Source: Escherichia phage vB_EcoP_B. Taken from it: a DNA stretch of 44,018 nucleotides. The notes beneath the pieces were generated by a model that did no database searches, was not told where the DNA came from, and saw nothing but the letters and a program-made list of their open reading frames with translations. The stretch lies in the sequence record NC_047806.1. One strand, written 5' to 3'. A program made the position numbers and the translations under genes. Numbering within the stretch: the stretch's first letter is position 1; each line of letters opens with the position of its first letter. Of the stretch, positions 3,770 to 42,671 are shown piece by piece.

Positions 3770-3790
3770 GTTCTATAGTGTCAACTAAAT
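3770..3790 (-). promoter_or_regulatory. phage RNAP promoter (SP6-type)
   Basis: minus-strand ATTTAGTTGACACTATAGAAC; upstream of 3246..3716. Confidence 0.65.
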
Positions 3791-4792
3791 CTTACCAATC
3801 CAGCGATTGTCATTATTGGTCTGCATCGGGACAATGTGCGGCACACCCTCCAGAATAACCACACAACCTAATGCTGGCTTGTATTTGGACTCACGACCAT
3901 AGGCAAATGCACGAGATGACTCATCAATCAAACAGCCTCCCTGCACAGCCCAATACTGTTCATGGGTGTTACGTGCATACTCCACCGACATCTTCCCATG
4001 CAAGTGACCACACACTAAGTTCATGCGCTCATGTGCTGCATCTGCTAGGACAGCGCCAGCAGGTTGATGCTTGAACGCCACCTGCTCACCATTAGGTAGC
4101 TCAAGTACATGCGTATGCTGCCAGTCCCACTGGTCGCCACCTCCCTGCGGGAAGAAGACTTCACGGTATGTGCGCAGGTATTGCACAGGGATGCCATGAG
4201 CACTGGCCTTACGGAAATGTAAGGAGCCATGATTAGAGTGGCAGATGCGCATTACAGGGAACATCTTATGTAATTTACGCATGAAGATACGAGCCTTCTC
4301 TAACTCCATACCAGCCGAATCCAGATTAGGATCTGACGTATGGAATGAAAGTGCGTGCTTGTCCGCCTCATCACCAAGATGAACTACAGTGTCTGGACGG
4401 TAACGTGCTGCCACCGCTGCCAGAAACTCTAATGTATCTGGATGCTCATAAGGTGCATGGGTGTCAGGTATTACCAGTACACTTCGATGAGGCGAGTCAG
4501 GCAATGGTACAATAGCCAAATCCTCGTAGCGGTCAGGAGTCCTGAGCTTACGTTCTTCTTTGATAGCACGGTTCGCAATAGCCAAGGTTTCATACGCCTC
4601 GCCATTCTTCTTCCGCTTTTCAAATTGTTTGGCCCAATACTTTGCAAGCTGCCTTGTAACTGTAGTCCCGTGTGTGTTATCTGAGAGAATAGACGCCATC
4701 AGGCGATAGTTGATAGTGCCATCATCCCGCTTTGCACTTTCAACTGCTTCTTCTACCTCCTTATTAGTAAACAAGTTTCTAATCTTACCCAT
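3785..4792 (-). CDS. calcineurin-like metallophosphoesterase (about 335 aa)
   Basis: ORF track 3785..4804 (TTG start) trimmed to first ATG; motifs IPDTH, HLGDEADKH, CHSNHG, CGHLHG in canonical order. Confidence 0.7.
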   Translation of the reverse strand: MGKIRNLFTNKEVEEAVESAKRDDGTINYRLMASILSDNTHGTTVTRQLAKYWAKQFEKRKKNGEAYETLAIANRAIKEERKLRTPDRYEDLAIVPLPDSPHRSVLVIPDTHAPYEHPDTLEFLAAVAARYRPDTVVHLGDEADKHALSFHTSDPNLDSAGMELEKARIFMRKLHKMFPVMRICHSNHGSLHFRKASAHGIPVQYLRTYREVFFPQGGGDQWDWQHTHVLELPNGEQVAFKHQPAGAVLADAAHERMNLVCGHLHGKMSVEYARNTHEQYWAVQGGCLIDESSRAFAYGRESKYKPALGCVVILEGVPHIVPMQTNNDNRWIGKI

Positions 4793-4846
4793 TATTCTTT
4801 CCAAACCCTCCCGCTTACAATATCACTAATGGTAGCAGGTGAGACA

Positions 4847-5221
4847 TTATAGCTTAGCTAGTCGTAACCTCTCACCTTTCTTATTAGCAACATATGTTGC
4901 CCTGATAGCACGTACAACATCCCAAGTTAGTTTAGCACGATTATTATTTTCTCCTGCAAAGCTAGCACGTCTGCCTCGATCTATCATATCTTGTATGTTG
5001 TCCTGCTGTGTACCAGATATTAAGTGTGCAGGGTTTATACACCTTGCATTATCACAAGTGTGTCTAATCACTACATCCTTTATATCCTCTATAGAAAGGC
5101 CGTGGTGCTCTGCATAGACCACGCGATGAAGTAATTGTAACCTCTTACTAGGTTTATGCCACGACCTGTAGTAACCTAATTGATTTAAGCATTTATAATG
5201 CCCGTGGTCTATACAGTCCAT
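4847..5221 (-). CDS. HNH endonuclease (124 aa), possible homing endonuclease
   Basis: ORF track 4847..5353 trimmed to ATG 5219-5221 with AAAGGAG SD one nt after upstream stop; HNH core HHGLSIEDIKDVVIRHTCDNARCINPAHL. Confidence 0.65.
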   Translation of the reverse strand: MDCIDHGHYKCLNQLGYYRSWHKPSKRLQLLHRVVYAEHHGLSIEDIKDVVIRHTCDNARCINPAHLISGTQQDNIQDMIDRGRRASFAGENNNRAKLTWDVVRAIRATYVANKKGERLRLAKL

Positions 5222-5222
5222 A

Positions 5223-5624
5223 TCATACTCCTTTCTTTCTTGCATAAGCAAGGCGTGCCTTACGGTTCTTAGCCTCGCGCTTCTCTGCCTCCGTTTGATG
5301 TTTGTGATATAACTTATCTGTCTGAGGCGTACTATGTAACTTCCAGTATTCATACAGTCGTTCTAACCATTGAAGCTGGAAGTAACGGTTATTACCTGCC
5401 TTGCCATAACCAGAGATAACACCCTTAATCTTCCCTTCCGCACCATTGCAGCCTCGGCATACAACAGCGCGGCAGAATCCTGTCTCATGGTCATGGTCAA
5501 GTACACGGTTTACAGGTGTGACAGCTTTGAGACTGCCGCCACACAGAGGGCATTTCCAGCCTTGCTTATCCAGCAATTCCTTCTTATAAGCTGCCACCTC
5601 CGATGCTTTTAATTTGCTAACCAT
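5223..5624 (-). CDS. endonuclease VII-like Holliday-junction resolvase (133 aa)
   Basis: ORF track; CPLCGG ... DHDHETGFCRAVVCRGCNGAEG resembles T4 endo VII zinc/HNH region. Confidence 0.65.
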   Translation of the reverse strand: MVSKLKASEVAAYKKELLDKQGWKCPLCGGSLKAVTPVNRVLDHDHETGFCRAVVCRGCNGAEGKIKGVISGYGKAGNNRYFQLQWLERLYEYWKLHSTPQTDKLYHKHQTEAEKREAKNRKARLAYARKKGV

Positions 5625-6637
5625 TCCGCATCATCTCCCCACAAGATTGGGTTCTTATCGGCTCGCCATATATCACCTTTGAATCTAGCCATGTGAGCTA
5701 GGCGACCACATTCAAGCATCAGGTCAAAGGCTTTGCCGATACGATAACCACCTCGGTAATTCTTAATCTTAACTTGTCCATGCCCGAACTTAGCCTTGTA
5801 AGCACCCAGCACTGCCATGTACAACTCTTTCTCTGTCTTACAATCTTTGAGAAGATCATAGGCATATTTAGCACCACGACCTGGTATGCCAGCATAGTTA
5901 TCAATATCATCACCGATAATCATCTGTGCATAGTGGAACATGAGGCCAGCACCTTTTAGATCTTTGACTTGCCCATTAGCCTTACGGCGTAGCTCAAGCC
6001 AGCCCATAGGCTCTACCCACTTCTTCTCTTGACCCGGCTGTAGATGCCAACCGGGAACAATCATCAAATCCTTATCCAAGGAAACGATGCAAGTATCAGA
6101 GAATGATTTATGCTCTGGACTACCGATAGGGAACTCGTTACCTGTATCTTGCTGGAAGCGGCGGTGGCTGTCCCATTGTGCGATACTCATGAGGTCGTCT
6201 GCTTCCTCTCCATCTGCCAAGATTGCACCGTGAACCTCTAAGAGATGCTCTCGCAATTCATAGAAGAATGGAGGCTTCTCGGTCTTACGTTGACCTTTAT
6301 AAGGCTTGGTGAATGCTAGGCGGACACGGAAGTTAGCTTCTGATTTCGTCATGAATAACTTAGCTGCATCACATTCTGCTGCATACACCCAAGAGTTAAG
6401 CAAGGAGTTCACACGGTCACACGCTTGCTTACACTCAGGCGTATCTTTGATTGATGGGACTTGTCCTGACTTAACACGAGTTGTGGCTCGTACATAAGTC
6501 ATGTCGCTGATTGTATACGCGACGATGTAAGGCAACATATCGGCATCTATTAAAGCGATTCGATTACCTTCAGTCGGCCACAGGATGAGATTATTGTCTT
6601 CCGATACTGTAGCTCCGAAGTCGAAGTTTGGTCGCAT
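5609..6637 (-). CDS. 5'-3' exonuclease (gp6-like), about 342 aa
   Basis: ORF track 5609..6646 (GTG start) trimmed to ATG with AAGGAG SD; LIDADMLPY and DKDL/GIPG blocks like T7 gene 6 exonuclease. Confidence 0.75.
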   Translation of the reverse strand: MRPNFDFGATVSEDNNLILWPTEGNRIALIDADMLPYIVAYTISDMTYVRATTRVKSGQVPSIKDTPECKQACDRVNSLLNSWVYAAECDAAKLFMTKSEANFRVRLAFTKPYKGQRKTEKPPFFYELREHLLEVHGAILADGEEADDLMSIAQWDSHRRFQQDTGNEFPIGSPEHKSFSDTCIVSLDKDLMIVPGWHLQPGQEKKWVEPMGWLELRRKANGQVKDLKGAGLMFHYAQMIIGDDIDNYAGIPGRGAKYAYDLLKDCKTEKELYMAVLGAYKAKFGHGQVKIKNYRGGYRIGKAFDLMLECGRLAHMARFKGDIWRADKNPILWGDDAEWLAN

Positions 6638-6822: not shown

Positions 6823-6939
6823 AATTCATTCTCCAATAACTATTACGCAAAAGACCCTGCCTACACTAAGGCAGACAGGGCATTAGATGAGGTGAGCGTG
6901 ATAGTCAACTAGGACTAACAGAGGCTACACCTGCTATTA

Positions 6940-7311: not shown

Positions 7312-7363
7312 ATTAAATTCTCCTTTTGTTGGTTATGGCATTATCGCCGATTAAAATTCTTCT

Positions 7364-7384
7364 CTTCTATAGTGTCCAGTAAAT
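7364..7384 (-). promoter_or_regulatory. phage RNAP promoter
   Basis: ATTTACTGGACACTATAGAAG. Confidence 0.7.
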
Positions 7385-7399
7385 ACCGGACACCGATTT

Positions 7400-7415
7400 G
7401 TCTCACACGTGAGAC
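7400..7415 (-). other. GTCTCAC..GTGAGAC palindromic hairpin element
   Basis: gtctcacacgtgagac; between gene end 7417 and promoter 7364-7384. Confidence 0.5.
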
Positions 7416-7416
7416 T

Positions 7417-7635: not shown

Positions 7636-7644
7636 CCTTTCTCC

Positions 7645-8451: not shown

Positions 8452-8509
8452 TTATTTAGTCTCCTATTGTTACACTACACAATCATAGGCAGAACTAAGC
8501 CGACCTATT

Positions 8510-8530
8510 GTTCTATAGTGTCCAGTAATT
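8510..8530 (-). promoter_or_regulatory. phage RNAP promoter (upstream of SSB)
   Basis: AATTACTGGACACTATAGAAC. Confidence 0.65.
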
Positions 8531-8828: not shown

Positions 8829-8834
8829 AACTCC

Positions 8835-9212: not shown

Positions 9213-9277
9213 ATTTATATCTCCTATATTTATTTAATTACCTATACTACCTTATAAACCTAGATTACCTAGGCTTT

Positions 9278-9299
9278 CCTTCTATAGTGTCCAGTAAAT
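9278..9299 (-). promoter_or_regulatory. phage RNAP promoter
   Basis: ATTTACTGGACACTATAGAAGG. Confidence 0.7.
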
Positions 9300-12456: not shown

Positions 12457-12474
12457 CTGTCTCACGTGTGAGAC
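12457..12474 (-). other. GTCTCAC..GTGAGAC palindromic hairpin element
   Basis: tgtctcacgtgtgagaca; intergenic. Confidence 0.5.
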
Positions 12475-12911: not shown

Positions 12912-13595
12912 TTAGATATTCACGTAGGTTTCTTCAGTAACGATAGGTAGGTACAGTAATTCTTCACCATTTAAGATGTGAAGACCCTTCAACCCTTGCT
13001 TACGAATAATACCTTCTATAGTGTCGGCGAAATGATTATTAGCTACACGCCGTGGTGTGCCATGCTCTGTGATTGCATGGTCAACATCCAAGATTCGCAC
13101 AGGCACATTTGGGTGCATCATAGCTTCACCAATTTTCACCATAGCTTGCCCTGTGGATTTACCCAATGCACGAGTATTGAACTGTGTAACACCTAATGCA
13201 GTGCCACATTGCTTAATCATTTCACTTTGAGTCTTACCAGTGATTACATTGCGACGCTCTTTCTTGAGTGTGGTTTTCTTTTCTGCCATGTACTCTGCTA
13301 GTGTTTGAGGACCAGCACCATAATAAAGAGGAGCTAGGAAATTCTTAAGCATCTGGCGAGCACATTTATCGCAAACCTCATCATGTATGCACTTACATTG
13401 ATTGTTTATCTCTACAATCTTTTCAAGATATTTATGTGCTGTTTTCTTGTGGTAAGAAGCCTTAATACCATCCTCATATTCTACATGATACATGTTCTCA
13501 CTTATACGATCCACTACACCACGGCAACGATAACGACGTGAGGCTTCATTGATGTTACGAACATAATCACCTGCATTCAATACTAATTTATACAT
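12912..13595 (-). CDS. hypothetical protein (227 aa) with Cys cluster
   Basis: ORF track 12912..13670 trimmed to ATG 13593-13595 with GGAG SD (the track's N-terminal extension covers an intergenic hairpin); CKCIHDEVCDKC cluster. Confidence 0.5.
   Translation of the reverse strand: MYKLVLNAGDYVRNINEASRRYRCRGVVDRISENMYHVEYEDGIKASYHKKTAHKYLEKIVEINNQCKCIHDEVCDKCARQMLKNFLAPLYYGAGPQTLAEYMAEKKTTLKKERRNVITGKTQSEMIKQCGTALGVTQFNTRALGKSTGQAMVKIGEAMMHPNVPVRILDVDHAITEHGTPRRVANNHFADTIEGIIRKQGLKGLHILNGEELLYLPIVTEETYVNI
13013..13033 (-). promoter_or_regulatory. phage RNAP promoter-like sequence inside coding region (divergent -17..-8)
   Basis: ATTTCGCCGACACTATAGAAG. Confidence 0.4.
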
Positions 13596-13635: not shown

Positions 13636-13653
13636 TGTCTCACATATGAGACA
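13636..13653 (-). other. GTCTCAC..GTGAGAC palindromic hairpin element
   Basis: tgtctcacatatgagaca; between helicase stop and next gene. Confidence 0.5.
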
Positions 13654-13673: not shown

Positions 13674-15662
13674 TCAGAACTCACTTTCTTCATCGAAGTT
13701 AGTCTCTTCTATAGTGTCTGGTAAATCAGGTACTTCTTGTTGCCTTGCTTCACCTGTATCAAATGACTTAGTACGAGCTTGTGGTTCCATTAAACGTCCG
13801 GTTTGAATGTCACCCTTGAGCATGACCTTGGTTCCAGTGTAGATACCTTGGTCGCGGTCTTTGACACATGAGATGTACGTGGTAGTCCTTTCATCAAGCG
13901 TTTCAGCTCTTGTATTACGCTCAATCCCCAAGGCGTAAGATGCCCAGAATCCGATAGCGCCTGAGCCTCGGAAGTCAGAAAGGATAACTTCGCCACCTTC
14001 TTCGTGTTGGGTACGGTTTGCCGGAGGACGTGTAAGGTGAGAGACAAGGAAAATCGTAACCGCATGTCGATCTTTGATAGTACCAATTCGTTTGACGCAT
14101 TCATCAAGTGCACCAACCTTCCCACCAAAAGCACGCTCATCTAATTTAATCCCCGTTAAGTTATCAATGATGATATTAGAAATGCCCATAGCCTCAAACT
14201 CTAGGCAAGTTTGCTCTACCTTCTCCATAGAATAGTCACCCTCTAGGTCAGCTACAAACAGCTTCCCTGTATCAGCTACATAATCAATGGCGGCATTAGC
14301 CTCTTCCTCAGTATAGTCGAACACCTCACGGTATCCGTCTTCTTTCGGGTCATTGGTTGGCGGTAACTCAATGCGCTTATCAATCCACTTACCGATAAAA
14401 GCACGGGACACCTTGACCATCGGGTCTTCTGTAGAAATGATGCCTACAGATTCACCATGTTCTTCAATAAGATGTTTAACCACTTCGCGGAGGAACTCAG
14501 TCTTACCTACACCAGAGCCTGCACCTACAATGATAAGCTGGTTCTTACGAATACCTAGCGTTACCTTGTTCAGCTTAGGCCAAGGCCATGATAGCCCTTG
14601 CTCTGGACGTGCAGCCTTGAGCTTATCCCTTTGAGATGCGATAGATTTAATATGGCTACCAAAGACTTCATCAGATGACTTGGCATTAAACCAAGCATCA
14701 ACAAACTCTTTAGCCTTGCCAGCCATCAATGCCTTGTTAGCATCTTTGCAACCAGAAGGGTATTCAAGGATATAGGATTTGCCAGGAAACAGGCGAGCCG
14801 CTTGCTGATTCTGCTTCTGCCCTACCTCATCTCCATCAAAACCCCATATAATCTTCTTAAATTGGGCGATGTGTTCACGGTTCTGTACTATCTCTTCAAG
14901 GCAAGACTCACCTTTATTGACAGACCATACATGGTAAGGCTGGCCTTCCCACTTAGTACCCTTGGCAGAATCAAGGAGCATTTGCTGTGCTGCTAGTGCA
15001 TCCAGTTCGCCGCCGACAATGAGCAAGTGATCCTTTCGTCTTCCCTTGTCTAACACGTGAGACAAAGTATTCATCCCGAAAAGATCTTGCATACCAAAGA
15101 GTTTACCTAAATGACCAAACTTAAAGTCTTTAGGTAATGTGCGACACTTAGCGCCTACTAGTTCACCTTTCTCGAAGCGTGGATAGTAATGCCGTGAGAC
15201 TCTACCCTCTTCATCGTGTCCGACACGTACATCATACAATGCGCAAATGTCGCCGCGAATGTGTCGGGAAACAAGATTCTTACGCTTAAGCGTGAGGAAC
15301 CATTCAACATCAAGTTTCCACTCTGCTTCTTGGTCTGCCCTTTCTTGCTCATTCATGACCTCCCATCGGTCTTTCATACGCATGCCACCAAGTGCGATGG
15401 CGCGTAACTTAGGGTCGCTTATCTTCCCTTCCTTCTCCATCTCTTTGAATTGAGAAGGTGTATATTTGATATTGCCAGTAATAGGCAACTCGGTGATCTC
15501 GATGCCACCATCTGGCTTATGATAGTAAGGCTTGCCGTTATCGTGGAAATGACCACGGTTACAATAGCCAGCACCATCATCAAATATCATGAGATGATTG
15601 CCGGATTTATCGTGTCCATTCTTCTGGCAGGCAGGGCACGGGATGTTATTAATAATAGCCAT
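13674..15662 (-). CDS. bifunctional DNA primase/helicase (gp4-like), 662 aa
   Basis: ORF track; N-terminal zinc ribbon CPACQ...CNRGH, Walker A GAGSGVGKT, acidic C-terminus ending ...FDEESEF; AAGGTG SD. Confidence 0.85.
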   Translation of the reverse strand: MAIINNIPCPACQKNGHDKSGNHLMIFDDGAGYCNRGHFHDNGKPYYHKPDGGIEITELPITGNIKYTPSQFKEMEKEGKISDPKLRAIALGGMRMKDRWEVMNEQERADQEAEWKLDVEWFLTLKRKNLVSRHIRGDICALYDVRVGHDEEGRVSRHYYPRFEKGELVGAKCRTLPKDFKFGHLGKLFGMQDLFGMNTLSHVLDKGRRKDHLLIVGGELDALAAQQMLLDSAKGTKWEGQPYHVWSVNKGESCLEEIVQNREHIAQFKKIIWGFDGDEVGQKQNQQAARLFPGKSYILEYPSGCKDANKALMAGKAKEFVDAWFNAKSSDEVFGSHIKSIASQRDKLKAARPEQGLSWPWPKLNKVTLGIRKNQLIIVGAGSGVGKTEFLREVVKHLIEEHGESVGIISTEDPMVKVSRAFIGKWIDKRIELPPTNDPKEDGYREVFDYTEEEANAAIDYVADTGKLFVADLEGDYSMEKVEQTCLEFEAMGISNIIIDNLTGIKLDERAFGGKVGALDECVKRIGTIKDRHAVTIFLVSHLTRPPANRTQHEEGGEVILSDFRGSGAIGFWASYALGIERNTRAETLDERTTTYISCVKDRDQGIYTGTKVMLKGDIQTGRLMEPQARTKSFDTGEARQQEVPDLPDTIEETNFDEESEF
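13706..13726 (-). promoter_or_regulatory. phage RNAP promoter inside 3' end of helicase gene
   Basis: ATTTACCAGACACTATAGAAG. Confidence 0.6.
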
Positions 15663-16037: not shown

Positions 16038-16060
16038 CTTATCTATACTGTCCGGTAAAT
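16038..16060 (-). promoter_or_regulatory. phage RNAP promoter variant (upstream of gp1.1-like ORF)
   Basis: ATTTACCGGACAGTATAGATAAG (C-to-G change in core). Confidence 0.5.
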
Positions 16061-16065
16061 ACGAA

Positions 16066-16081
16066 GTCTCACATGTGAGAC
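16066..16081 (-). other. GTCTCAC..GTGAGAC palindromic hairpin element
   Basis: perfect 16-bp palindrome gtctcacatgtgagac, 5 nt upstream of promoter 16038-16060. Confidence 0.55.
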
Positions 16082-16084
16082 AAC

Positions 16085-16223
16085 CTAGGTCTGCCCTTCC
16101 TCTAAGTGGTAATAAGAGGAAGGAAGAAGGTAATAGGTATTCCTAGATAACCTATATAACCTTTAATACCTATTACTTCCTTTATATCCTTTATCTTCCC
16201 TTTCTTTCCCGTCTCCGACGGCT
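16085..16223. other. AT-rich repeat-containing spacer between tandem phage promoters; candidate primary replication origin
   Basis: non-coding, AT-rich, repeated AGGAAG/TATTACC/AGGTTAT motifs; flanked by promoters 16224-16244 and 16038-16060 (T7 origin sits in the analogous place). Confidence 0.35.
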
Positions 16224-16244
16224 ATCCTATAGTGTCCGGTAAAT
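16224..16244 (-). promoter_or_regulatory. phage RNAP promoter (first after RNAP gene)
   Basis: ATTTACCGGACACTATAGGAT. Confidence 0.6.
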
Positions 16245-16247
16245 AAA

Positions 16248-16263
16248 GTCTCACATGTGAGAC
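16248..16263 (-). other. GTCTCAC..GTGAGAC palindromic hairpin element
   Basis: perfect 16-bp palindrome, 3 nt upstream of promoter 16224-16244. Confidence 0.55.
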
Positions 16264-16298
16264 ACGTTTTATGTTAATGAAATGTTACAGGTAGTAGG

Positions 16299-16327
16299 TA
16301 AAAGAAAGCCACTCCCGAAGGAATGGC
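16299..16327 (-). terminator. intrinsic terminator after RNAP gene (early terminator candidate)
   Basis: RNA GCCAUUCC-UUCG-GGAGUGGC (8-bp stem, UUCG loop) followed by CUUUCUUUU. Confidence 0.55.
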
Positions 16328-16336
16328 CTATTAATA

Positions 16337-18964
16337 TTATGCGAAACAATAGTCTGAAACTAAGATTTCGTTAAGGTCAAACTCCCCTTGCTCTGGTACT
16401 TGGATTCCGGTGTCTACTAACCAACGCTCTTCGTGCACATCTAGCAGGTTTTGCAGGGCATTATGGTTTTGATACATCTTAACCATTTCTTCCCTTAAGC
16501 TATCCCGCAGGTCTGCGGTACGTCCTGCATGAGTACCGAAAGAATCATGGATGACTGCAATGGATGTAATACCTTTATCCACTAGGTCACATACAGTCAG
16601 AATCAGGTGGCTAGCATCGTGACCATGGACGAAGTTAGGAGCAGCCGCACCCATCATTGCCGTTTCATCAACTACATCTGTTTCAATCTGGAGACTCATC
16701 TTGATTTCACCCATCAAGCAAGTGGATACGCGGAGCATATCTGTAGCCATTATCTTTTGTTGCAAGATGAAGCCAGTTGGTAAGGGATATTCTAAGCCTT
16801 CGTTTCTTTTAGCTGCGAAACGTGCAAGCTGACGAATCATTTTCATTGCCACTATAGGAGCTTTAACCACTTCCGAGATAGAAGGCCAGATTAAAGCTGT
16901 CATATAGTTATAAGCTGCGCTAGGTGTCAGGCTGTCTTTACGGTCATTATCAAAAGGGTGTACAGGATTGGCGGTACGCCCTTCCGCAATAGCCCGTTGG
17001 GCCTCTTTTTCTTCTAAATCAACGATATAATCAATCACTGACTCACGGCAGGTTAGACGTGTGCTGCCATAAGGTAGTGTCATTACGGGCTTTTTGGTCA
17101 GGCCGCGAGTGATTCCTATCATATCCCACGCACTAGCCATACTACGCAGTTCCGCACCTGTTAAAGTCACGCTGCCAGAAGTGAAGGTTTCCGCATCCTC
17201 TGCATTCATGTATGCATAATTCTTCTGAATTACTACCTGCGCAACGGCACCATAAATATCTTGAGGAGAGTCAGAGGGCTTAAGGTTTACTGCTTTCGCA
17301 CCTACTGCATCGCGTAGCATAGCACTGTAGTGCTGGATACCAGAACAACTACCATCTTGATGGACTGGGAGGTGCGTCATGAATTGGTCTTGCGTGCCTT
17401 CATCCAGTGCATCCAGATAACGCGCATATTCAAAGCACCATGCAAGGAAGCCGTAAGGGGAGTCGGCATTTACCCATTGAGTGAAGGTCAGCGGATCCGC
17501 TGCAATGTCGCGGCACATGTCTTGAAATTCACCATCCAGCACGTTAGCGGTGCGCACGTCAAAAGTTTTCTTATCCCAACCCCAGTTATTAGCCCCGTTC
17601 ACCAAAAACCACTTAAGCGCCTCAGCGCTATCAAGACGCTGCCCTTCGGTAAAACGGAGCAATGCCTTGCCTAAGTCGTTTGATTGCGGAGAGAGCGTGC
17701 TAGATTGCGCGTAGACGCGGCTGCGGCTGTCCAGAGCATACACGAAGTATATTGCGTCAAATTGGCTGTATTTACGGGCCTGCCCTACCATGCGGACGGT
17801 CGCCGCCGATTTGCTGCCGCGCTTAGTCTCAGCGGTATACAGCTTGGTGCATTCACCTTTCCAGTTGATGAAGGCTTGCCATTGTTCCGGTGTTAACATT
17901 TCTTTCAGTTCACGTCCTCGCAGGTGCTGGAACTCTAACGGCACCGGATTAGCTGGCTTGTTCTCACGGTCGATGAGTGGTTTAAAGGAAGGTACACCAT
18001 AGCCGAGGTCTAGACGTATAACGTCCTCCACAACCTGTAAAACCTCTTTATTAACCTGCCACTTAGTTGCCTGCAAAGCGTTAACAGCCTTATAAACGGC
18101 TGGCATTTGCTTTTTGGTCAGCTTGCGGACGTGCTCACGATTGCCTTTTACCAGACGAATACGGCTTGCTACTTTCTCAGTATGAAACCCACCGTTAAAA
18201 GGTGATACCCAAGGGCGGGGAGGTATAACGCAAGGTGCATAGGCAGGGCTGAGCTGCGCTACATGTTCCTTAAATGCAGTTATCCACTCTCCAACATGTT
18301 CACTGGTCTGTAAATAGTAAACACCATGCTTTCCGCCGTTAGTGCGCAAGGTACGAAGGAAGACAGGTTGACCATTGAAGAATACACTATTCTCCAATAT
18401 TTCGAGCAAGGTCATACCGATTTGCAGCAAGGTGTCTTTAGGCCATGCCTCCCAACGGGAGAAATCCGCGTCACGGTCAGCAACAGATTTCTCAGCTACT
18501 ACCGCTACGTTGTGCGCATGACGATAAGATTTAGTCTTGCTAGCCTTAAGCGACTTCTTCACTTTCTCAAAGTACTTAGCTGCGTGACCTTCCAGCTTGC
18601 TAAAACGTACTTGGTCTTCGATGCGGTCCGCTACATTCATAGCGATGGCTTGTAAGGTAACGTCTGTATTCAGCATGTCCATAACGATTTTCATGGTGAT
18701 ATATGCTGCTACTTCGTTTTCTACGCAGTTAATGAAAGCTAATGCACGCGGTGCGCGGCCTCTTTTACCTTCGTACTCTTCCTTATAAGCCTGAATACCT
18801 TCCGCCATAGGTGCGATTAGTTCGGACAATAAGCGGCGATTCCATGCCGTGTCTGATTCATTACCGGATGCAATCTGGCGTTGTTGGTCCGCTTCAAAGC
18901 GACGGATACCGCCGTTAAACATTTCTTCTTCAAGTTGAAGTTGAATAGCGTGTAGGTCTTGCAT
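16337..18964 (-). CDS. single-subunit DNA-directed RNA polymerase (T7/SP6-like), 875 aa
   Basis: ORF track; [18 protein letters not shown] and C-terminal ...DYCFA match T7 RNAP catalytic and foot motifs; length close to SP6-group RNAP; AGGAG SD. Confidence 0.9.
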
Positions 18965-19912: not shown

Positions 19913-19976
19913 AATAGTCACCTTATATAGTGGTAAGTAAATATCACATAGCCCACACAGGCAGGCTATAGGCTAG

Positions 19977-20204
19977 TTACTTGATGTAATGCCACGTCTC
20001 TATAAATGCATCCTTACTTAATACGCACTCCATGCCTCCCGGTGTAACATATTCTACTAAGCCACCTCTCACACGAAGGTAATTACCGCCTTCCTTTCTT
20101 AGTTTGCGTTTAGCTTTATCGAATAAAAACTCACGGTAAAGGTGATAGGAGCACCAGCTTAAGCCAATAAGAGCAAATGCCATAATGATGCTATCTAAAT
20201 CCAT
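19977..20204 (-). CDS. early small membrane protein (75 aa)
   Basis: ORF track; N-terminal hydrophobic helix IIMAFALIGLSW; AGGAG SD. Confidence 0.5.
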   Translation of the reverse strand: MDLDSIIMAFALIGLSWCSYHLYREFLFDKAKRKLRKEGGNYLRVRGGLVEYVTPGGMECVLSKDAFIETWHYIK

Positions 20205-20269
20205 AGTCTTAACTCCTAGTAAGTGAAAGTTTAATCAGGCGCTACCGTAGCAACGCCTTGTTAAGCCTT

Positions 20270-20290
20270 CTCTTATAGTGTCAGCTAAAT
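20270..20290 (-). promoter_or_regulatory. phage RNAP promoter-like sequence in early region
   Basis: ATTTAGCTGACACTATAAGAG (SP6-like TGACAC, TATAAG instead of TATAGAAG). Confidence 0.4.
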
Positions 20291-20398: not shown

Positions 20399-20728
20399 TT
20401 ATTCCTCTTCTCCGCCTTCATACCAAACTACATCGCTGTCATTTGGTACATCATTATAAAGAGCTTCATAGATGCGAGCTTGTAGAATCTTGGTTACATC
20501 CTTCGTATCAGGAATCAAACCAGCATCTTCAAAATCAACATCAATGCCATCAGCAGCCATCACAGTAAAAATCTCACTGTAATAAACTGGCACCATGCTA
20601 TCTACAACCTCATGCAGTGCATCAGAGTAATCATCATCTTCACGAATCTCATCGTACTTGATGCGCTCGTTGAATGCTTCAACAGTTGCAGCCAGAAGGT
20701 TGTAGTAAGCGTTAGCGTTGCGTTCCAT
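20399..20728 (-). CDS. ocr: Ocr-like antirestriction DNA-mimic protein (gp0.3-like), 109 aa
   Basis: ORF track; block ERIKYDEIREDDDYSDALHEVVDSMVPVYYSEIFTVMAADGIDVDFEDAGLIPDTKDVTKILQARIYEAL closely parallels T7 Ocr as remembered; highly acidic. Confidence 0.7.
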   Translation of the reverse strand: MERNANAYYNLLAATVEAFNERIKYDEIREDDDYSDALHEVVDSMVPVYYSEIFTVMAADGIDVDFEDAGLIPDTKDVTKILQARIYEALYNDVPNDSDVVWYEGGEEE

Positions 20729-20818
20729 GATTTAATCCTCATTAGTTAGGTTACATTATAGGACACTCAAAGAATACCCTAGGTTTAACCTATCCAGACT
20801 AAGAAGCGACTACCCATA

Positions 20819-20864
20819 TTGTTAAAGAGCGTGGCTTGTGCCTTGATAGGCTGGCTAGTGCCAG
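20819..20864 (-). promoter_or_regulatory. early-mRNA processing-site candidate (hairpin + GCTCTTTAACAAT)
   Basis: exact 13-mer shared by three early intergenic sites, each next to an inverted repeat. Confidence 0.4.
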
Positions 20865-20872
20865 CAACTATT

Positions 20873-21037
20873 TTATAAGATACTATTCACAAGTTTATCT
20901 ATTTTAGCATTAATTGCAACCACTTTACTATAAAGTTTATCGTGTTTGCTCTTATCTGTGTTAGCTTGCCAAGCGGCATAAGCAACAGCAAGTTTCTCTT
21001 GCAATGCATCATAGCGTTTACGTTGTGCGTTAGTCAT
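20873..21037 (-). CDS. early small protein (54 aa); not in ORF track
   Basis: ATG 21035-21037 with AAGGTG SD; translation MTNAQRKRYDALQEKLAVAYAAWQ... Confidence 0.4.
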   Translation of the reverse strand: MTNAQRKRYDALQEKLAVAYAAWQANTDKSKHDKLYSKVVAINAKIDKLVNSIL

Positions 21038-21915: not shown

Positions 21916-22085
21916 TTGTCTAACGTGTGAGACTAAGGAAAAAAAAAAAAAAAAAAAAGCAATAGATACAGAGCTAGGATAGGCTAGATTGGCTAGGTAT
22001 TCCAAACGTGAAGGGGAGAAAAAGGAAAAAAAAAAAAAAAAAAAAGCAATAGATACAGAGCTAGGATAGGCTAGATTGGCTAGGT
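21916..22085. repeat. tandem direct repeat (two about 87-bp units) each containing an A20 tract; probable genome-terminus / terminal-repeat junction
   Basis: 62-bp exact repeat GG-A20-GCAATAGATACAGAGCTAGGATAGGCTAGATTGGCTAGGT at 21937-21998 and 22024-22085; lies between last late gene and first early gene. Confidence 0.7.
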
Positions 22086-22320: not shown

Positions 22321-22847
22321 GAGTGAACGGAGCGCAAGCGGAGTGAGGAGCAGTGAGTGAAGCGTAGCGAAACGAACAGATAGCCCACACCCTCATGCCC
22401 TGTCAAACGCTCAGGAATGGCCCTAAAACGGCCTGTGTAAGCCCTAAGCGGTTGCACTAAGGCAATCACCTTGTCCAATACTAAGGCGCGCCCTAGCGCT
22501 TCCTAGGTGTTCTCCTTGTGCAGCCACTAAGAGCAGACCTCGGCAAGCTCTAGGCCACCCGTCGAGCTTCCTGCGGCAGCAGGTTGAAGACGGACCAGCC
22601 CAGCCCAATTCCCAAGCCAACCGCAGCGCGGCCCCATATGGGGGAAATCCGGCGAGGGCGAGGGCGAGAGAGCTGACACACGCCTATATCAAAATTTTGA
22701 CTTTGGTTACTTTGTGACCACCTTTGGTCTGCCCTTTTGGTTACACTAAGATTATTCCTGCTAAGTACAGGTACACCAGCAGTGGGCCATAGATACATGC
22801 TGTGCATAAGAGGGCTAACAGTAGGTCTTTCATGTTACCTCATTTGA

Positions 22848-26035: not shown

Positions 26036-26116
26036 ATACTCTCCTATTACTTCCCAACCCTCCCTATGAAGATTGGCTAGTAATAGGCCGCTCAAAAGAA
26101 CGGCACTATCTTATCT

Positions 26117-26137
26117 CTTCTATAGTGTCCAGTAAAT
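26117..26137 (-). promoter_or_regulatory. phage RNAP promoter (upstream of tailspike operon)
   Basis: ATTTACTGGACACTATAGAAG. Confidence 0.7.
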
Positions 26138-27655: not shown

Positions 27656-27788
27656 TCTCTCTCCTATTATGTAAGTATAGTAAGGAAGTAAGGAATAGGG
27701 TGTACAGGAGTACACCCATACTAAGGAATACCTATATAACCTAGGTTAACCTATATTATCCTTGTTATTCTCTTATTATCTGGGCCTT

Positions 27789-27810
27789 CCTTCTATAGTG
27801 TCCGGTAATT
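27789..27810 (-). promoter_or_regulatory. phage RNAP promoter (overlaps terminase stop)
   Basis: AATTACCGGACACTATAGAAGG. Confidence 0.65.
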
Positions 27811-29707
27811 AATAAGTCCTTGAAATCCTTGCAGAAAGTGTATTTCTGCTTGCCGATTTACTCCTGTAATTCTGACCGTATACTCTTTGCTGCATAGCCA
27901 CGGAAGTGTTGGTTACTCTTCGCTCAGTGCCATAATCTCCATAGAGCATTGCCCTACGGAGGTGAGGTGTGTTCATAGCATGGATGTAATCGCGCATCTC
28001 CTGCGCTCTGAGGCGATTAATCCGTGTAACCTCGTCATAGTCTATCTGAGAAGTTAATTGCCGTATAGCGCCATACAGAGCGTCTAAGCGGTCATCGTGT
28101 CGTAGGCTGTTCTTCTCAATCGTGATGTTCGACATTTGATTGAAAAGGCTGTATGACATGCGTAGTTCAAGCGGATAGTGCTGTACCGACTCAAAATCAG
28201 ACTTGACCATCTCTGCGTTGAAGATGAGCCTGTGGGCCGCCATTAGTGGCTCTAGTGTTTCAATGATACGCAACTCTTTCTGTCCGGTGGCGTAATCTTC
28301 CTCCAGAGTCACAGGCCACTCTCGTTCAAAGTATGGCTTTATAACGGCCTCAAACGCGCCATGACCAAAGTTCTTTTCAATGAATACCTCTTTAACACCT
28401 GCCTGCTTTGCGGCCTGCACAATGCGATTCAGGGACGATTCGCGGTATCCTCCCGGAACACCAAAGCACTGATACACATAAATGAATGTGCCGTGCAGGA
28501 AGACGATAGACACACCCGTTTCATCCCCGTTCTTACCGCCACCTGCGGGGTCAATATACATAATCTTTCGGGTAACAGCACCCCACTCATAAGGTCGGGC
28601 CACAGGGCGATACATAAAGTCTGTAGGCTTATTGCCATACTTCGGTGCATCGCCAATGATGTTAATAGAGTCGTTGCTCCATGTAGGCATCACAGGGACT
28701 TCCTCTGTACCGAATGAAGTGAAGATGAGGTTGTTCAGGCGTAGTGGATAGCGGTCAGCATCCATCATGCGAGTGTTAAGCATAAACTGAAGCTGGAACT
28801 TAGCCGCACCCTGCGAGATTTCCTTCTCGATCAGCACATCATCATCATACATTTCAGGTGCACAAGGTGCACCACTATTGCCATCCAAGCCATACCCTGA
28901 GCGAAGTGCTGGGTTGTCCTTCATATCCTGCACAATCATAGGTGCAAGGAAGTCACCATAGCATTGCTCCTGCTCCACTGAGGGATAACGTGCAGTCCAG
29001 ATACGAACAGAGTAACCACGAGCAGGTAGGTTATTGTAGATAGAGTTTACGTTCTGAGGAGTACCAAGGTAGATAATATCACCAAACTGGTTAATAGATT
29101 CAAACTCCTTGGTCAGTTCCTCAAGCAAGGCACGTCCTGCCGCTGTACGAGCATTCTGCATTGACTCAACGTCATCTGCTAGGATGATATCTGCACGCGC
29201 ACCCTGCATACCTGCTTCGATTGAGTAACAAGACACAGAAGGCGACTTGTCACTGCCACGTAGGGTGTAATGAATCTCAAATGCCTTAACTGAGGCACGG
29301 TCCCCTGCGTAGATGTCCGGTAGCATAAACTCAAGAAAGTCTAGGCCACGGAAGATTTTAACTACCCAACCTGCGATTTCCTCTGCTCGCTTGGCGTTTT
29401 GGGATACTACCATGATACGCTTATGGGGTTCATGGATGATACGGAAAACAGTATAGATTGCTGATAGTGTAGTTTTAGCGATACCACGGGGCGCTTCGAT
29501 GAGGCGATATTTATGTCCATAGAATAGAAACTTTAAAATATCGGCCTGCATACGAATCAGATGAGGGTTGCCTGCAATCAAGTTATGGATAACTGTATCT
29601 GCAAAGAGAAGCAAACCTTCCGCCGTATACTGAAAAGTCTGCTGTAACTCCTGTAGCATCTCCCATCTGGCAAGAGCCTCCGCTTGTGATTCTCTTGCCT
29701 TAGCCAT
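27809..29707 (-). CDS. terminase large subunit (gp19-like), about 632 aa
   Basis: ORF track 27809..29710 (TTG) trimmed to ATG with CTAAGGAGG SD; Walker A-like PRGIAKTT; size and position. Confidence 0.8.
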   Translation of the reverse strand: MAKARESQAEALARWEMLQELQQTFQYTAEGLLLFADTVIHNLIAGNPHLIRMQADILKFLFYGHKYRLIEAPRGIAKTTLSAIYTVFRIIHEPHKRIMVVSQNAKRAEEIAGWVVKIFRGLDFLEFMLPDIYAGDRASVKAFEIHYTLRGSDKSPSVSCYSIEAGMQGARADIILADDVESMQNARTAAGRALLEELTKEFESINQFGDIIYLGTPQNVNSIYNNLPARGYSVRIWTARYPSVEQEQCYGDFLAPMIVQDMKDNPALRSGYGLDGNSGAPCAPEMYDDDVLIEKEISQGAAKFQLQFMLNTRMMDADRYPLRLNNLIFTSFGTEEVPVMPTWSNDSINIIGDAPKYGNKPTDFMYRPVARPYEWGAVTRKIMYIDPAGGGKNGDETGVSIVFLHGTFIYVYQCFGVPGGYRESSLNRIVQAAKQAGVKEVFIEKNFGHGAFEAVIKPYFEREWPVTLEEDYATGQKELRIIETLEPLMAAHRLIFNAEMVKSDFESVQHYPLELRMSYSLFNQMSNITIEKNSLRHDDRLDALYGAIRQLTSQIDYDEVTRINRLRAQEMRDYIHAMNTPHLRRAMLYGDYGTERRVTNTSVAMQQRVYGQNYRSKSASRNTLSARISRTY

Positions 29708-30006
29708 CAATCCTCCTTAGTGAATTGGATGATCTTGCCACTTGATGCCTCTCGGATAGCCTTGAGGCGCTTAGATAGCTTGGACTCCTCCTGCTGTGCA
29801 GCGGGTGTAGCGGTAATACCATTATCAAGAACCCACTTACACATAGCTCCAATGTCTTTACCAGAGACTAAATGCAGTGCTGCATCTGGGTCTTCTTCTA
29901 TAGTGTCCAGTATTGCCTGTGCTTTCTTATTAAAGATTTTGGTAATAGCACCATGTAGAATGCCAACCTCGTCTTCCGTAGCTGCATGTTTATTGTGTAC
30001 GCTCAT
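29707..30006 (-). CDS. terminase small subunit (gp18-like), about 99 aa
   Basis: ORF track 29707..30051 trimmed to ATG 30004-30006 with GGAGGAGG SD; position between holin and large terminase. Confidence 0.55.
   Translation of the reverse strand: MSVHNKHAATEDEVGILHGAITKIFNKKAQAILDTIEEDPDAALHLVSGKDIGAMCKWVLDNGITATPAAQQEESKLSKRLKAIREASSGKIIQFTKED
29895..29915 (-). promoter_or_regulatory. phage RNAP promoter-like sequence inside small terminase gene
   Basis: CAATACTGGACACTATAGAAG (5' end diverged). Confidence 0.45.
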
Positions 30007-34464: not shown

Positions 34465-34494
34465 AGTTCCTCCATAGTGCCTATCATAAAGACC

Positions 34495-34512
34495 TGTCTC
34501 ACATGTGAGACA
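34495..34512 (-). other. GTCTCAC..GTGAGAC palindromic hairpin element
   Basis: perfect 18-bp palindrome tgtctcacatgtgagaca between internal virion protein genes. Confidence 0.55.
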
Positions 34513-34528
34513 AGCCTTGAGTTAGGTA

Positions 34529-40601: not shown

Positions 40602-41338
40602 TAACGATCCTCCCACGGACGAAGTGCCCAACTGTCATATGGTGAATGAGAGTAAGCAGGTACATTCTGAGAACCACCTGCCATAATACCGAACTGACGC
40701 TGCGTAGGATTATGCACAAGCATATTCAATCGCTTTTGTGACATTTGTTCTGATTGCACATCCATTAGAAGCTGAGTGGCAATCTGCTGTGCAGTGGCTA
40801 GCTTAGTCTGATCTGCATCCTTAGACACAATAAACTCTACAGCAGCTTGATAGGCAATAGCCTGCATTACACTAGTAGGTAGATGCTCATATGGAAGTAA
40901 GGTAAGTAAGGTAAGACGAATCATACCATTAGCATTCACATGCTTACGCATATCAAAGGTATGACTCCATGTAGAGTAGAGCTTACCTGCTCGCATAGTC
41001 ATGGGTACTTTCTTCTCACCCAAAGCATAACACTGCAATACTGCTAGGCAGTTGTTAGGTAGATTGACTTCACCATTGGTATCAGGTGCAATCTGCCAGT
41101 TTGGTTCACGATTGAACCACCAGCCACCTCCTTTGTTGTACTGGAATCGCTGGGATACGATGTCGATCATCTTGCTTGCATCTTCTGCGTCCAAGTCACC
41201 TGAGTCGAGAGAATCCACACCCTCACGACCAATAGCTCGCATACACAAGTTTACCGCTTCCAGCTTACTATCAATAATCTGGAAGGCCACATCTTCCATC
41301 ATATGACCTACTTTACTGGTTTGTCTAATTACAGGCAT
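40601..41338 (-). CDS. tail tubular protein A (gp11-like), about 245 aa
   Basis: ORF track 40601..41389 trimmed to ATG 41336-41338 with AGGAGGG SD; the track's extra 17 codons are the terminator hairpin/T-run; GGGWWFN resembles T7 gp11 GWTFN. Confidence 0.65.
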   Translation of the reverse strand: MPVIRQTSKVGHMMEDVAFQIIDSKLEAVNLCMRAIGREGVDSLDSGDLDAEDASKMIDIVSQRFQYNKGGGWWFNREPNWQIAPDTNGEVNLPNNCLAVLQCYALGEKKVPMTMRAGKLYSTWSHTFDMRKHVNANGMIRLTLLTLLPYEHLPTSVMQAIAYQAAVEFIVSKDADQTKLATAQQIATQLLMDVQSEQMSQKRLNMLVHNPTQRQFGIMAGGSQNVPAYSHSPYDSWALRPWEDR

Positions 41339-41349
41339 GAACCCTCCTA

Positions 41350-41386
41350 ACAAAAAAAGAACCCTACCTACGCAAGGTAGATAGGG
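41350..41386 (-). terminator. intrinsic terminator after capsid gene (T-phi analog)
   Basis: 10-bp stem CCCUAUCUAC/GUAGGUAGGG with 5-nt loop followed by UUCUUUUUUUG; overlaps leader/SD of tail tube A. Confidence 0.6.
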
Positions 41387-41394
41387 CATAGGTA

Positions 41395-42600
41395 TTACTC
41401 AGCAGGTTTCATTGCAGTCGGCTTAATGTCATTAGCCATCACTGCACGAACAGCAGCAACCAAATCTTCAGCAGGCAAGCTAGCAGCGGCAGCAGCACCT
41501 GCCGGGGCAGCATTCTTGACGTATACAGCTTTACGCTGTGCACGGTTCAGAACCTGAGTGTGCTGTGCTCCACCAGTACCCTCAGCCTCCCCAGTAGATG
41601 TGCTACGCTTAGTTGTCACAACAGACACTGCTTCCCATCGATCAGGGATTGCACCTTCAGACATGAAAGTATCAATGTAGTAGGTCTTCTCTTTCTTCTC
41701 ATAGAAGATATCACCGGTTACATCAATAGAACGACCCACAAGCAGAGCGTCAGATGTGAACAGTACAGCGATAGCACCATTCATCTCTGCGGTCGGGTCA
41801 TAACGATAACCGTTGTCTTCATTGGACAGCAGGTGATGTTTCTGACCCTGAGAGAATTTAGGGAAGCGGTTAGACGGGATAACAGGACAGTTGTAAGAAG
41901 ACAGAACAAAACCATGAATGGTTGCACCGGACTGGCTGATGGTGTAGCTCTTGTCAACGATACGGTCTGCATCACGCAGTACGTTGAAGTAGCGCCACGG
42001 CATCAGGATAGCTACATCAGAGATGTCTACTTCCTGCTCAAGCTGCTGCTCCAGAGCAAACTCTACAGCCGCCATTACATACTGCGGGTTAACCAGTGCT
42101 TCGCTTTCATTGACCTCCACGTTGACAGAGAAGCCATGACCTTTCACACGAGGGTTAGTACGCTTAGCCTGAGTGTTAGCAATACCACCCAGCAGCATCT
42201 GCTGAATCAGCATTTCATCTTCCATCTTCTTAAGCTGCTTAGCTTGGTTGGTAGCCAGCTTAGGTTTCAGGCTGTCAATATCACCCTGTACATCATGCAG
42301 GTGTGCAACGGTGTTACGAGCAATAACAGTGGCATCAATTACCAGCTGGTTTTTATCGGCCTGAGTAGAGGTTGCAGCCGGAGACTGACCCGGTGCCAGA
42401 ACCTGCAACTCTGTTTCACCCAAGTATTTGTTGCTTACCGTGTTAGTACCAGTAACAGTCTGAACATCGAAGTAGGACATGATGTTCTCACCTTTCAGGT
42501 ACTGCTCATTTACCTTACCATTGAATTTCTCAATGAGCAGGCTGTCTACCTCACCGGAAGCGGAGACTGCAACGTTGGTCAGAGTGTTCGGTGTAGACAT
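41395..42600 (-). CDS. major capsid protein (401 aa)
   Basis: ORF track; strongest SD in window AAGGAGG; promoter 42651-42671 upstream; terminator immediately downstream; size typical of SP6-group capsid. Confidence 0.8.
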   Translation of the reverse strand: MSTPNTLTNVAVSASGEVDSLLIEKFNGKVNEQYLKGENIMSYFDVQTVTGTNTVSNKYLGETELQVLAPGQSPAATSTQADKNQLVIDATVIARNTVAHLHDVQGDIDSLKPKLATNQAKQLKKMEDEMLIQQMLLGGIANTQAKRTNPRVKGHGFSVNVEVNESEALVNPQYVMAAVEFALEQQLEQEVDISDVAILMPWRYFNVLRDADRIVDKSYTISQSGATIHGFVLSSYNCPVIPSNRFPKFSQGQKHHLLSNEDNGYRYDPTAEMNGAIAVLFTSDALLVGRSIDVTGDIFYEKKEKTYYIDTFMSEGAIPDRWEAVSVVTTKRSTSTGEAEGTGGAQHTQVLNRAQRKAVYVKNAAPAGAAAAASLPAEDLVAAVRAVMANDIKPTAMKPAE

Positions 42601-42650
42601 TAATAAACCTCCTTATAAATCAAATTGATAATTTAGGGAGACATTTCTCC

Positions 42651-42671
42651 CTTCTATAGTGTCCAGTAAAT
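42651..42671 (-). promoter_or_regulatory. phage RNAP promoter (capsid promoter)
   Basis: ATTTACTGGACACTATAGAAG between scaffold and capsid genes. Confidence 0.75.

Follow-up and report, generated by a model that had tools for sequence, protein, structure and literature searches.

Introduction

The genome of Escherichia phage vB_EcoP_B (NC_047806.1) carries a 23-base motif in many copies, which raises the questions of what this motif is and why some of its copies depart from the common form. The window analysed, i.e., the whole stretch of 44,018 nucleotides, is a complete K1E-like coliphage genome that is about 96% identical to phage K1E along its full length; compared with K1E, this Vectrevirus genome is circularly permuted and reverse-complemented. 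In an earlier note on the sequence, the copies were described as SP6-type promoters that fall into two sequence subclasses, and the variants were proposed as weaker or temporally distinct promoters or as promoter relics. The repeated motif is almost certainly the known set of 13 promoters for the phage's own RNA polymerase. This finding is correct but ordinary, and it adds little that is new: both the promoters of the K1E type and the polymerase that reads them have been characterised, the promoters are in published use as expression tools, and a known set is repeated here. What is added is a reason why natural copies deviate, namely overlap with a stop codon or a coding position; the observation that a promoter within coding sequence fixes the encoded residues as D-T-I-E and, in the helicase, even determines the C-terminal tail; a distinction between conserved functional variants and one truly decaying site; and a conserved promoter with an A start, located ahead of the polymerase gene, as a candidate feedback element, which could also help to tune orthogonal expression systems.

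Results and discussion

Motif copies in the window

Scanning the window with a 23-nt PWM recovered all 13 sites that had been listed before, with scores of 21.7-38.5, where shuffled sequences reached at most 13.6, which confirms that the repeated sites are real. The sites with +1 at 26120, 7367, 42654, 9282, 27793, 13709, 8513, 16227, 3773, 29898, and 13016 scored 27.7-38.5, and the two sites with a variant core scored 24.1 (20273, TATAAG) and 21.7 (16043, CAGTATAG). The intervals by which the copies had been located correspond to the stretch from -17 to about +4 in every copy. The core CACTATAGRA has 12 exact matches in the window, against 0.22 expected from shuffles; 11 of these lie on the minus strand and are promoters, in agreement with the description of the core as unchanged in 11 of the 13 copies. 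Thus, the 23-nt consensus ATTTACTGGACACTATAGAAG occurs far above chance and in gene direction: all 13 sites resembling it are on the minus strand, the direction of every gene, a shared orientation on which the earlier note was silent.

Two further matches were set aside. The single plus-strand match to the core (16850-16859, antisense within the polymerase gene) was attributed to chance, as it consists of the core only and has a PWM score of 7, below 13.6. A weak ATTTAGATGACATTATGG site within gp36 was dismissed with a PWM score below 5, and it is conserved because of coding sequence only. No Rfam families were found in the window, and the GenBank records of K1E, K1-5, and SP6 hold no promoter features.

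Polymerase and promoter type

The single-subunit RNA polymerase gene (16337..18964, minus strand) encodes 875 amino acids with three differences from K1E gp7 (99.7% identity), and its specificity loop is the same as in K1E and K1-5, so that a polymerase gene with a K1E-type loop is present in the same genome as the sites. The 23-nt consensus is likewise identical to that of K1E and K1-5, with strain-level differences only, e.g., A here for G in K1E/K1-5 at -10 of site 13709, and C here for T in most relatives at -11 of site 27793. The promoter reading is strongly supported by this consensus and this polymerase. The K1E promoter and the K1E polymerase have been used to drive expression in cells (PMC6412113), and K1E and SP6 have been assigned to separate specificity clusters, with 12 promoters in SP6 (PMC11880802).

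The label "SP6-type" is to be replaced by K1E-type, the sites being SP6-like in a broad sense only. The promoter of SP6 (Zindervirus; ATTTAGGTGACACTATAGAAG) shares -17 to -13 and -8 to +4 with the sites in the window, but has GGT in place of CTG at -12 to -10. At the position equivalent to T7 N748, K1E-type polymerases, including this one, have Ser, and SP6-type polymerases have Arg. The true SP6 tetramer, GGTG, is present in none of the 13 copies, GTTG and GCTG being the nearest to it. Promoters of T7 class II/III (TAATACGACTCACTATAGGGAGA-type) differ from the sites at -17 to -8, and the polymerase shares only about 32% identity with that of T7.

Conservation and orthology

Each of the 13 sites is matched in K1E, K1-5, CC2, and CrRp3 by a positional orthologue that carries the same variant bases, and for 11 of the 13 an orthologue bearing SP6-type bases at -12 to -9 exists in SP6 and K1-ULIP33. 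Among the sites with an SP6 orthologue are the early TATAAGA copy, both tandem promoters that follow the polymerase gene, and the copies within the helicase gene and gp10; SP6 lacks the promoter internal to the small-terminase gene, which was found only in Vectrevirus, and carries one more site within gene 36. A protein-only locus search returned only close relatives, and the more distant genera were therefore picked individually. Across up to 16 Vectrevirus genomes, 23 of 299 footprint columns (7.7%) were variable versus 321 of 1560 flanking columns (20.6%), with a nearly invariant core from -9 to +3; the difference held with a decaying fourteenth site included (Fisher p = 4e-5), although conservation within coding regions derives in part from protein constraint. 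Together with the positional orthologue found for every site, this purifying selection on the footprints also backs the promoter reading.

Promoter positions and transcription units

All features below lie on the minus strand and are given in the direction of transcription from the polymerase gene onward. A terminator-like hairpin with a T-run (16296..16329) directly 3' of the polymerase gene marks the end of the early unit, and it lies upstream of two tandem promoters. The first of these (+1 at 16227; 16222..16244; ATTTACCGGACACTATAGGATAG) is preceded by a 16-bp palindrome, and its transcript opens with a small conserved hairpin. The second (+1 at 16043; 16038..16060), preceded by the same palindrome, has the core CAGTATAGATAAG with G at -5 and lies 31 nt upstream of gp8. 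Next is the promoter with +1 at 13709 (13704..13726) in the 3' end of the primase/helicase gene gp9, whose stop codon occupies +34 to +36, followed by the one with +1 at 13016 (13011..13033; ATTTCGCCGACACTATAGAAGGT) inside gp10, 115 nt upstream of gp10.5. A perfect-consensus copy (+1 at 9282; 9277..9299) is intergenic, 70 nt upstream of gp15, and the site with +1 at 8513 (8508..8530; AATTACTGG to GAAC) lies 62 nt upstream of gp16. The perfect copy with +1 at 7367 (7362..7384), 56 nt upstream of gp18, has a palindrome 16 nt upstream of it; a second terminator-like hairpin with a T-run (6844..6881) separates gp18 and gp19. The promoter with +1 at 3773 (3768..3790; ATTTAGTTGACACTATAGAACAA) is 42 nt upstream of gp23.

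In the circularly permuted remainder, a perfect copy (+1 at 42654; 42649..42671) precedes the major capsid gene gp31 by 54 nt, and directly 3' of this gene is the third terminator-like hairpin with a T-run (41351..41387). The promoter with +1 at 29898 (29893..29915; CAATACTGGACACTATAGAAGAA) lies in the small-terminase gene gp39, 191 nt upstream of the large-terminase gene. The copies at 13016, 13709, and 29898 are thus within coding sequence, as had been reported. The last two are the site upstream of gp41 (+1 at 27793; 27788..27810; beginning AATTACCGG) and a perfect copy (+1 at 26120; 26115..26137) situated 85 nt ahead of gp46 and gp47, the latter being the gene for the endosialidase tailspike.

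The likeness to T7 is one of organisation only. T7 has off-consensus class II promoters, consensus class III promoters, and the tandem pair phi1.1A/phi1.1B after gene 1. Here, perfect copies precede structural genes and off-consensus copies occupy the DNA-metabolism region, and two tandem promoters with an AT/purine-rich stretch come directly after the polymerase gene and the terminator.

Judging from its homology with the T7 and SP6 enzymes, the polymerase is expected to bind -17 to -5 as duplex DNA, with the AT-rich recognition loop reading about -17 to -13 and the specificity loop about -12 to -7, after which the TATA would be melted and transcription would start at the G (or A) that follows it. 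The sites would split the genome into nested co-directional units that end at the three hairpin terminators following the polymerase gene, gp18, and the capsid gene. Promoters that overlap the end or the interior of an upstream gene carry the bases demanded by its stop codon or codons, and three conserved variants, namely the early copy with AGA after TATA and the tandem pair, one member of which has G at -5, are probably tuned in strength. From sequence and conservation we infer initiation at each site, including the A-start and G(-5) variants, as well as the relative strengths and the autoregulation.

Departures from the consensus

Overlap with genes distinguishes the perfect copies from most of the others. 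The promoters that do not overlap an ORF are all perfect (4/4), and seven of the nine off-consensus copies either overlap an upstream stop codon (TAA, TAG, or TGA) or are intragenic. At 3773, the G at -12 is the final base of the gp22 stop codon TAG (-14 to -12), and at 20273, the GCT at -12 to -10 comes from the last codon of gp4, AGC, and the first base of its TGA stop. The A at -16 belongs to a TAA stop codon (-18 to -16) both at 8513 (gp15.5) and at 27793 (terminase). All three intragenic sites read GAC ACT ATA GAA, encoding Asp-Thr-Ile-Glu, within His-Phe-Ala-Asp-Thr-Ile-Glu-Gly in the case of 13016 in gp10. The A at -10 of 13709 gives a synonymous CCA for CCG, and the differences between the small-terminase site and its relatives fall mainly at synonymous positions. 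In the helicase, the C-terminal residues track the promoter specificity of the genus: L-P-D in Vectrevirus, L-G-D in SP6, and L-E-T in PM93. Most off-consensus copies are thus shaped by overlap with neighbouring genes, but overlap does not account for every deviation: no overlapped codon covers the T at -10 of 3773, the C that 16227, 16043, and 27793 have at -11, or the exchange of the +1 and +2 bases in the early site.

The early A-start promoter

The early promoter (+1 at 20273; 20268..20290, minus strand) reads ATTTAGCTGACACTATA followed by AGAGAA, so that +1 is A and +2 is G. In line with its earlier description as a TATAAG copy among the early genes, it is found where the gp4 and gp5 homologues adjoin, at a distance of 1.3 kb from the polymerase gene and upstream of it; gp5 begins 69 nt downstream and is followed by gp6 and the RNA polymerase gene. 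The leader carries a conserved 5' hairpin. The TATAAGA copy is invariant in 16 genomes, and the same form occurs, each time with recognition bases particular to the lineage, in SP6, K1-ULIP33, K22PH164C1, and Erwinia phage S2, in the last of these at another early position. T7 is not known to carry a promoter of this kind for its polymerase gene between the early genes and gene 1, unlike the arrangement found here. The TATAAG was also considered as a host sigma-70 -10 element and rejected, as the consensus scan was empty there and no suitable -35 element lies upstream.

One paper remarks that a phage promoter ahead of the polymerase gene, present in a Vibrio relative, is missing from K1E (PMC4099482), and earlier annotators may therefore not have accepted the early site as a promoter. 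The early TATAAGA copy probably drives positive feedback on the polymerase gene; this feedback would be weak and would set in once host transcription has made the first polymerase. The view that this copy and the CAGTATAG copy are weaker or temporally distinct is plausible on sequence grounds. More tentatively, and with some doubt, the A start at the gp4/gp5 junction may represent a dedicated, anciently conserved autoregulatory promoter of the Molineuxvirinae polymerase operon, in which the non-G start is kept and the recognition half co-evolves with the polymerase specificity of each lineage. If so, the A start could confer distinct kinetics (low strength or ATP dependence) that time the switch from host to phage transcription, and the A-start promoter may be under-appreciated, since at least one paper denies such a promoter in K1E (PMC4099482).

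Alternative readings of the variants

At -12 to -9, the copies read CTGG (six), CCGG (three), CCAG (one), GTTG (3773), and GCTG (20273), as assigned before, but the GCCG of 13016, with C at -13, had been missed and fits neither proposed class. It is unlikely that CYGG and SP6-like GYTG are two real subclasses of different affinity, selected as temporal or strength classes in the manner of T7 class II and III. Such a division would be in keeping with perfect-consensus copies standing before the capsid and tailspike genes, and with GTTG and GCTG being invariant or nearly so in 5-16 genomes; the SP6 orthologues of these two sites are also off-consensus at -12/-11 (ATGTG, AAGTG), so that the off-consensus state at these positions is conserved across genera. 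However, the distinguishing bases are those of the gp22 stop codon and of the last codon and stop of gp4, and the gp4 homologue of Proteus phage PM93 ends in the same TTATTTAGTTGA with no promoter core after it; the GTTG and GCTG bases therefore exist for coding reasons. With GCCG as a third variant and several single-base variants besides, the copies form a continuum. Furthermore, a polymerase from a genome with the consensus TATTTACTGGACACTATAG and 14 candidate sites transcribes in vitro from the variant TATTTACTGGACACTATAGGAGGA and also from the SP6 promoter (PMC13029058); as a polymerase of K1E-type consensus accepts the SP6 promoter, the bases at -12 to -9 may barely matter. The sequence variation is that of one consensus with position-specific variants, not of two specificities.

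An even less probable alternative is that the early TATAAGA copy is recognised by the polymerase but has a role other than mRNA synthesis, i.e., in replication priming or like the left-end phiOL of T7. Left-end phage promoters upstream of the polymerase gene do occur in T7, PM93 (387), and Pseudomonas phage Nerthus (764), and those of T7 are linked to replication or packaging. Against this, gp5, gp6, and the polymerase gene downstream and the conserved 5' hairpin make up an ordinary mRNA promoter context, and no AT-rich, origin-like stretch adjoins the early site. Least credible of all is the idea that the variants TATAAG (20273), CAGTATAG (16043), and GCCG (13016) are decaying, functionless relics. 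Each of them does deviate where the other copies are invariant, and a truly decaying site exists nearby, at 19925. Yet 16 genomes share TATAAGAG without any change and 14 share CAGTATAGATAAG, with flanks that vary at 15-31% of columns; TATAAGA recurs in the four phages named above, and PM93 likewise has G at -5 in the site at this position. The 13 listed copies are thus not the promoter relics that had been suggested, and conserved promoters, some with position-specific variants, remain the preferred reading.

Real decay looks different. The degenerate promoter-like site with +1 at 19925 (19920..19942, minus strand; ATTTACTTACCACTATATAAGGT), a fourteenth site absent from the earlier note, lies 13 nt upstream of the gp6 start and has a PWM score of 15.9, with mismatches at -10, -9, -8, and +1. 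In relatives, 13 of its 23 columns are variable, with indels, and it is judged to be a relic or a chance resemblance rather than a working promoter.

Promoter set and cognate polymerase

Using a 23-nt weight matrix, exactly the 13 sites of the earlier note were recovered, all on the minus strand and with scores of 21.7-38.5 against a best score of 13.6 in shuffled sequence. Both the observation and its reading as promoters hold up. The core CACTATAGRA has 12 exact matches in the window versus 0.22 expected; the twelfth, on the plus strand at 16850 and with no match in its upstream half, is due to chance. One additional site (+1 at 19925) scored 15.9. Named by the coordinate of +1, the promoters follow one another on the phage map in the order 20273, 16227 and 16043 (in tandem), 13709, 13016, 9282, 8513, 7367, 3773, 42654, 29898, 27793 and 26120. 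This arrangement is T7-like, with off-consensus sites in DNA-metabolism genes and consensus sites ahead of structural genes. Terminator-like hairpins with a T-run occur after the polymerase gene (16329-16306), gp18 (6881-6854; gp numbers are those of K1E homologues) and the capsid gene (41387-41361).

The polymerase gene, an 875-aa minus-strand ORF (16337-18964), has 99.2% DNA identity to that of coliphage K1E, and its more than 80 close relatives all belong to Vectrevirus or their kin. The specificity loop, which in T7 reads -12 to -7, matches the K1E and K1-5 loops exactly, and the residue equivalent to T7 N748 is Ser versus Arg in SP6. Each loop type pairs with its own promoter type, Arg being present also in K1-ULIP33, a Klebsiella phage with SP6-type promoters. 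In T7 and T3, N748 is known to take part in reading -10/-11; by analogy, this role probably carries over to the window polymerase. The 13 sites are the known K1E-type promoters. In published work, the K1E promoter has been used together with the K1E polymerase (PMC6412113), K1E and SP6 are treated as separate specificity clusters, with 12 promoters counted for SP6 (PMC11880802), and TATTTACTGGACACTATAGGAGGA was transcribed in vitro by a polymerase whose genome gave 14 candidate sites and which also accepted the SP6 promoter (PMC13029058). The set was already known for K1E and K1-5.

Conservation and origin of the variant bases

The same scan yielded the same 13 sites in K1E and K1-5, at the same map positions and with the same variant bases, and likewise the same 13 sites de novo in the more distant Vectrevirus genomes CC2 and CrRp3. 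Orthologues with GGTG-type recognition bases occupy 11 of the 13 positions in SP6 and K1-ULIP33, while Proteus phage PM93, Klebsiella phage K22PH164C1 and Erwinia phage S2 carry consensus sequences of their own at many of them. Among up to 16 Vectrevirus sequences, 7.7% of columns vary in the 13 footprints versus 20.6% in 60-nt flanks, and positions -9 to +3 are almost invariant. CrRp3, with otherwise K1E-type promoters, also has one SP6-type site (ATTAGGTGACACTATAGGAG; +1 at ~24304 on the reverse complement) inside the gene for an internal virion protein with a lysozyme domain. Its counterparts lie at the same place in SP6 (29411) and K1-ULIP33 (30334), with none in the window, which suggests a recombinant segment or retention by coding constraint.

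The earlier note had sorted the copies into two subclasses by positions -12 to -9 and considered the variants possible relics. Its base calls are correct, and so is its description of three copies as intragenic, of the early one as carrying TATAAG and of another as carrying CAGTATAG. Neither idea, however, is supported for the listed copies: GCCG at 13016 lies outside both classes, the true SP6 sequence GGTG is found at -12 to -9 in none of the 13, and most deviant bases are owed to overlapped stops and codons, as seen when K1E genes were mapped onto the window and each upstream stop was placed in promoter coordinates. Four promoters (42654, 26120, 9282 and 7367) have no ORF reaching into their recognition half, and each matches ATTTACTGGACACTATAGAAG perfectly. 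A TAA stop of the upstream gene covers -18 to -16 at 27793 and 8513, which accounts for their A at -16; likewise, the gp22 stop TAG, at -14 to -12, supplies the G at -12 of 3773. In the case of 20273, the last codon AGC and stop TGA of gp4 fill -13 to -8 and so dictate G at -12, C at -11 and T at -10; the PM93 gp4 homologue has the same TTATTTAGTTGA ending with no promoter core after it, hence they are part of the gene. Overlap accounts neither for T at -10 of 3773 nor for the C found at -11 in three sites or the changes in the start region. As for relics, the early and 16043 variants are invariant in 16 and 14 sequences, respectively.

All three intragenic promoters (13709, 13016 and 29898) are read in frame as GAC ACT ATA GAA (Asp-Thr-Ile-Glu), and a second reading frame would hold a TAG stop. 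At the helicase tail, the residues preceding D-T-I-E (L-P in Vectrevirus, L-G in SP6, L-E-T in PM93) vary with the promoter specificity of each genus; here the protein is constrained by the promoter. The small-terminase promoter is confined to Vectrevirus; most of its differences from the matching codons in relatives are synonymous.

Early promoter with an A start

In site 20273, A occupies +1 and G occupies +2 (TATA|AGAG); gp5 begins 69 nt downstream, with gp6 and the polymerase gene after it. Its TATAAGAG shows no variation in 16 Vectrevirus sequences. At the gp4-homologue junction, the same TATAAGA start is shared by SP6, K1-ULIP33 and four SP6-like metagenome contigs; K22PH164C1 combines it with recognition bases of its own, GGCGAG, and S2, where it lies at a different early position, with CACCC. 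That the recognition half tracks each polymerase while the start is fixed as AGA argues for a functional promoter whose start differs by design. Such a promoter would exert weak positive feedback on polymerase synthesis and may be a conserved A-start autoregulatory promoter. PM93 lacks the early site; a left-end promoter of consensus sequence is present instead. The leader (20200-20273) contains a conserved GGCG..CGCC hairpin, also present in PM93 without the promoter core.

Tandem promoters and a degenerate site

Site 16043, the downstream member of the tandem pair that follows the polymerase gene, is invariant (CAGTATAGATAAG) in 14 sequences; the PM93 site at the equivalent position likewise carries G at -5. 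Each post-polymerase promoter lies within a ~45-nt direct repeat of palindrome plus promoter (16038-16263), the two being spaced by ~130 nt of AT/purine-rich sequence, a layout recalling the T7 primary replication origin at phi1.1A/phi1.1B. A small 5' hairpin (CCGUCGGAGACGG) is predicted in the transcript from 16227 (16190-16227) and conserved in SP6, K1-ULIP33 and PM93.

Site 19925 has mismatches at -10, -9, -8 and +1, and 13 of its 23 columns are variable, with indels, making it the only credible candidate relic. The gp6 start is 13 nt downstream of this decaying site (19920-19942). Immediately before the site, between gp5 and gp6 and downstream of the early phage promoter, is a terminator-like hairpin (19947-19970; -14.3 kcal/mol).

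Palindrome family and genome layout

The 16-bp palindrome GTCTCACATGTGAGAC, for which no open paper containing the sequence was found, has eight copies with up to two mismatches versus 0.21 expected (7400-7415, 12459-12474, 13637-13652, 15048-15063, 16066-16081, 16248-16263, 21918-21933 and 34496-34511). Seven are intergenic, and three precede promoters by 4-16 nt. Orthologues at corresponding positions are present in K1E, K1-5, SP6, PM93, K22PH164C1, K1-ULIP33, S2 and Nerthus, and in some lineages the arms change jointly to GTCCAAC..GTTGGAC. SP6 has six copies of GTCTAAC..GTTGGAC in constant orientation, which fits U-G wobble in sense-strand RNA, and the copy in 34480-34520 has a predicted fold of -17.6 kcal/mol (z = -4.3). 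The palindrome may be a terminator or pause site, an RNA stability element or a protein binding site.

By whole-window BLAST, the window gives a single collinear match to K1E, K1-5 and SP6 (~96%, ~92% and ~75% identity), reverse-complemented and circularly permuted; all its genes are on the minus strand. The K1E left end, the true genome end, corresponds to ~22669, and the terminal repeat, with this end, is present in single copy in mid-window (about 22381-22709). Both ends of this permuted assembly fall within the portal gene (1-1128 with 43600-44016). Relative to K1E, gp9.5 and gp2.5 are missing (13674 region; 20728-21037). Also absent is the homing endonuclease whose insertion divides the large-terminase gene of K1E, so that the large terminase (27809-29710) is a single intact 633-aa ORF.
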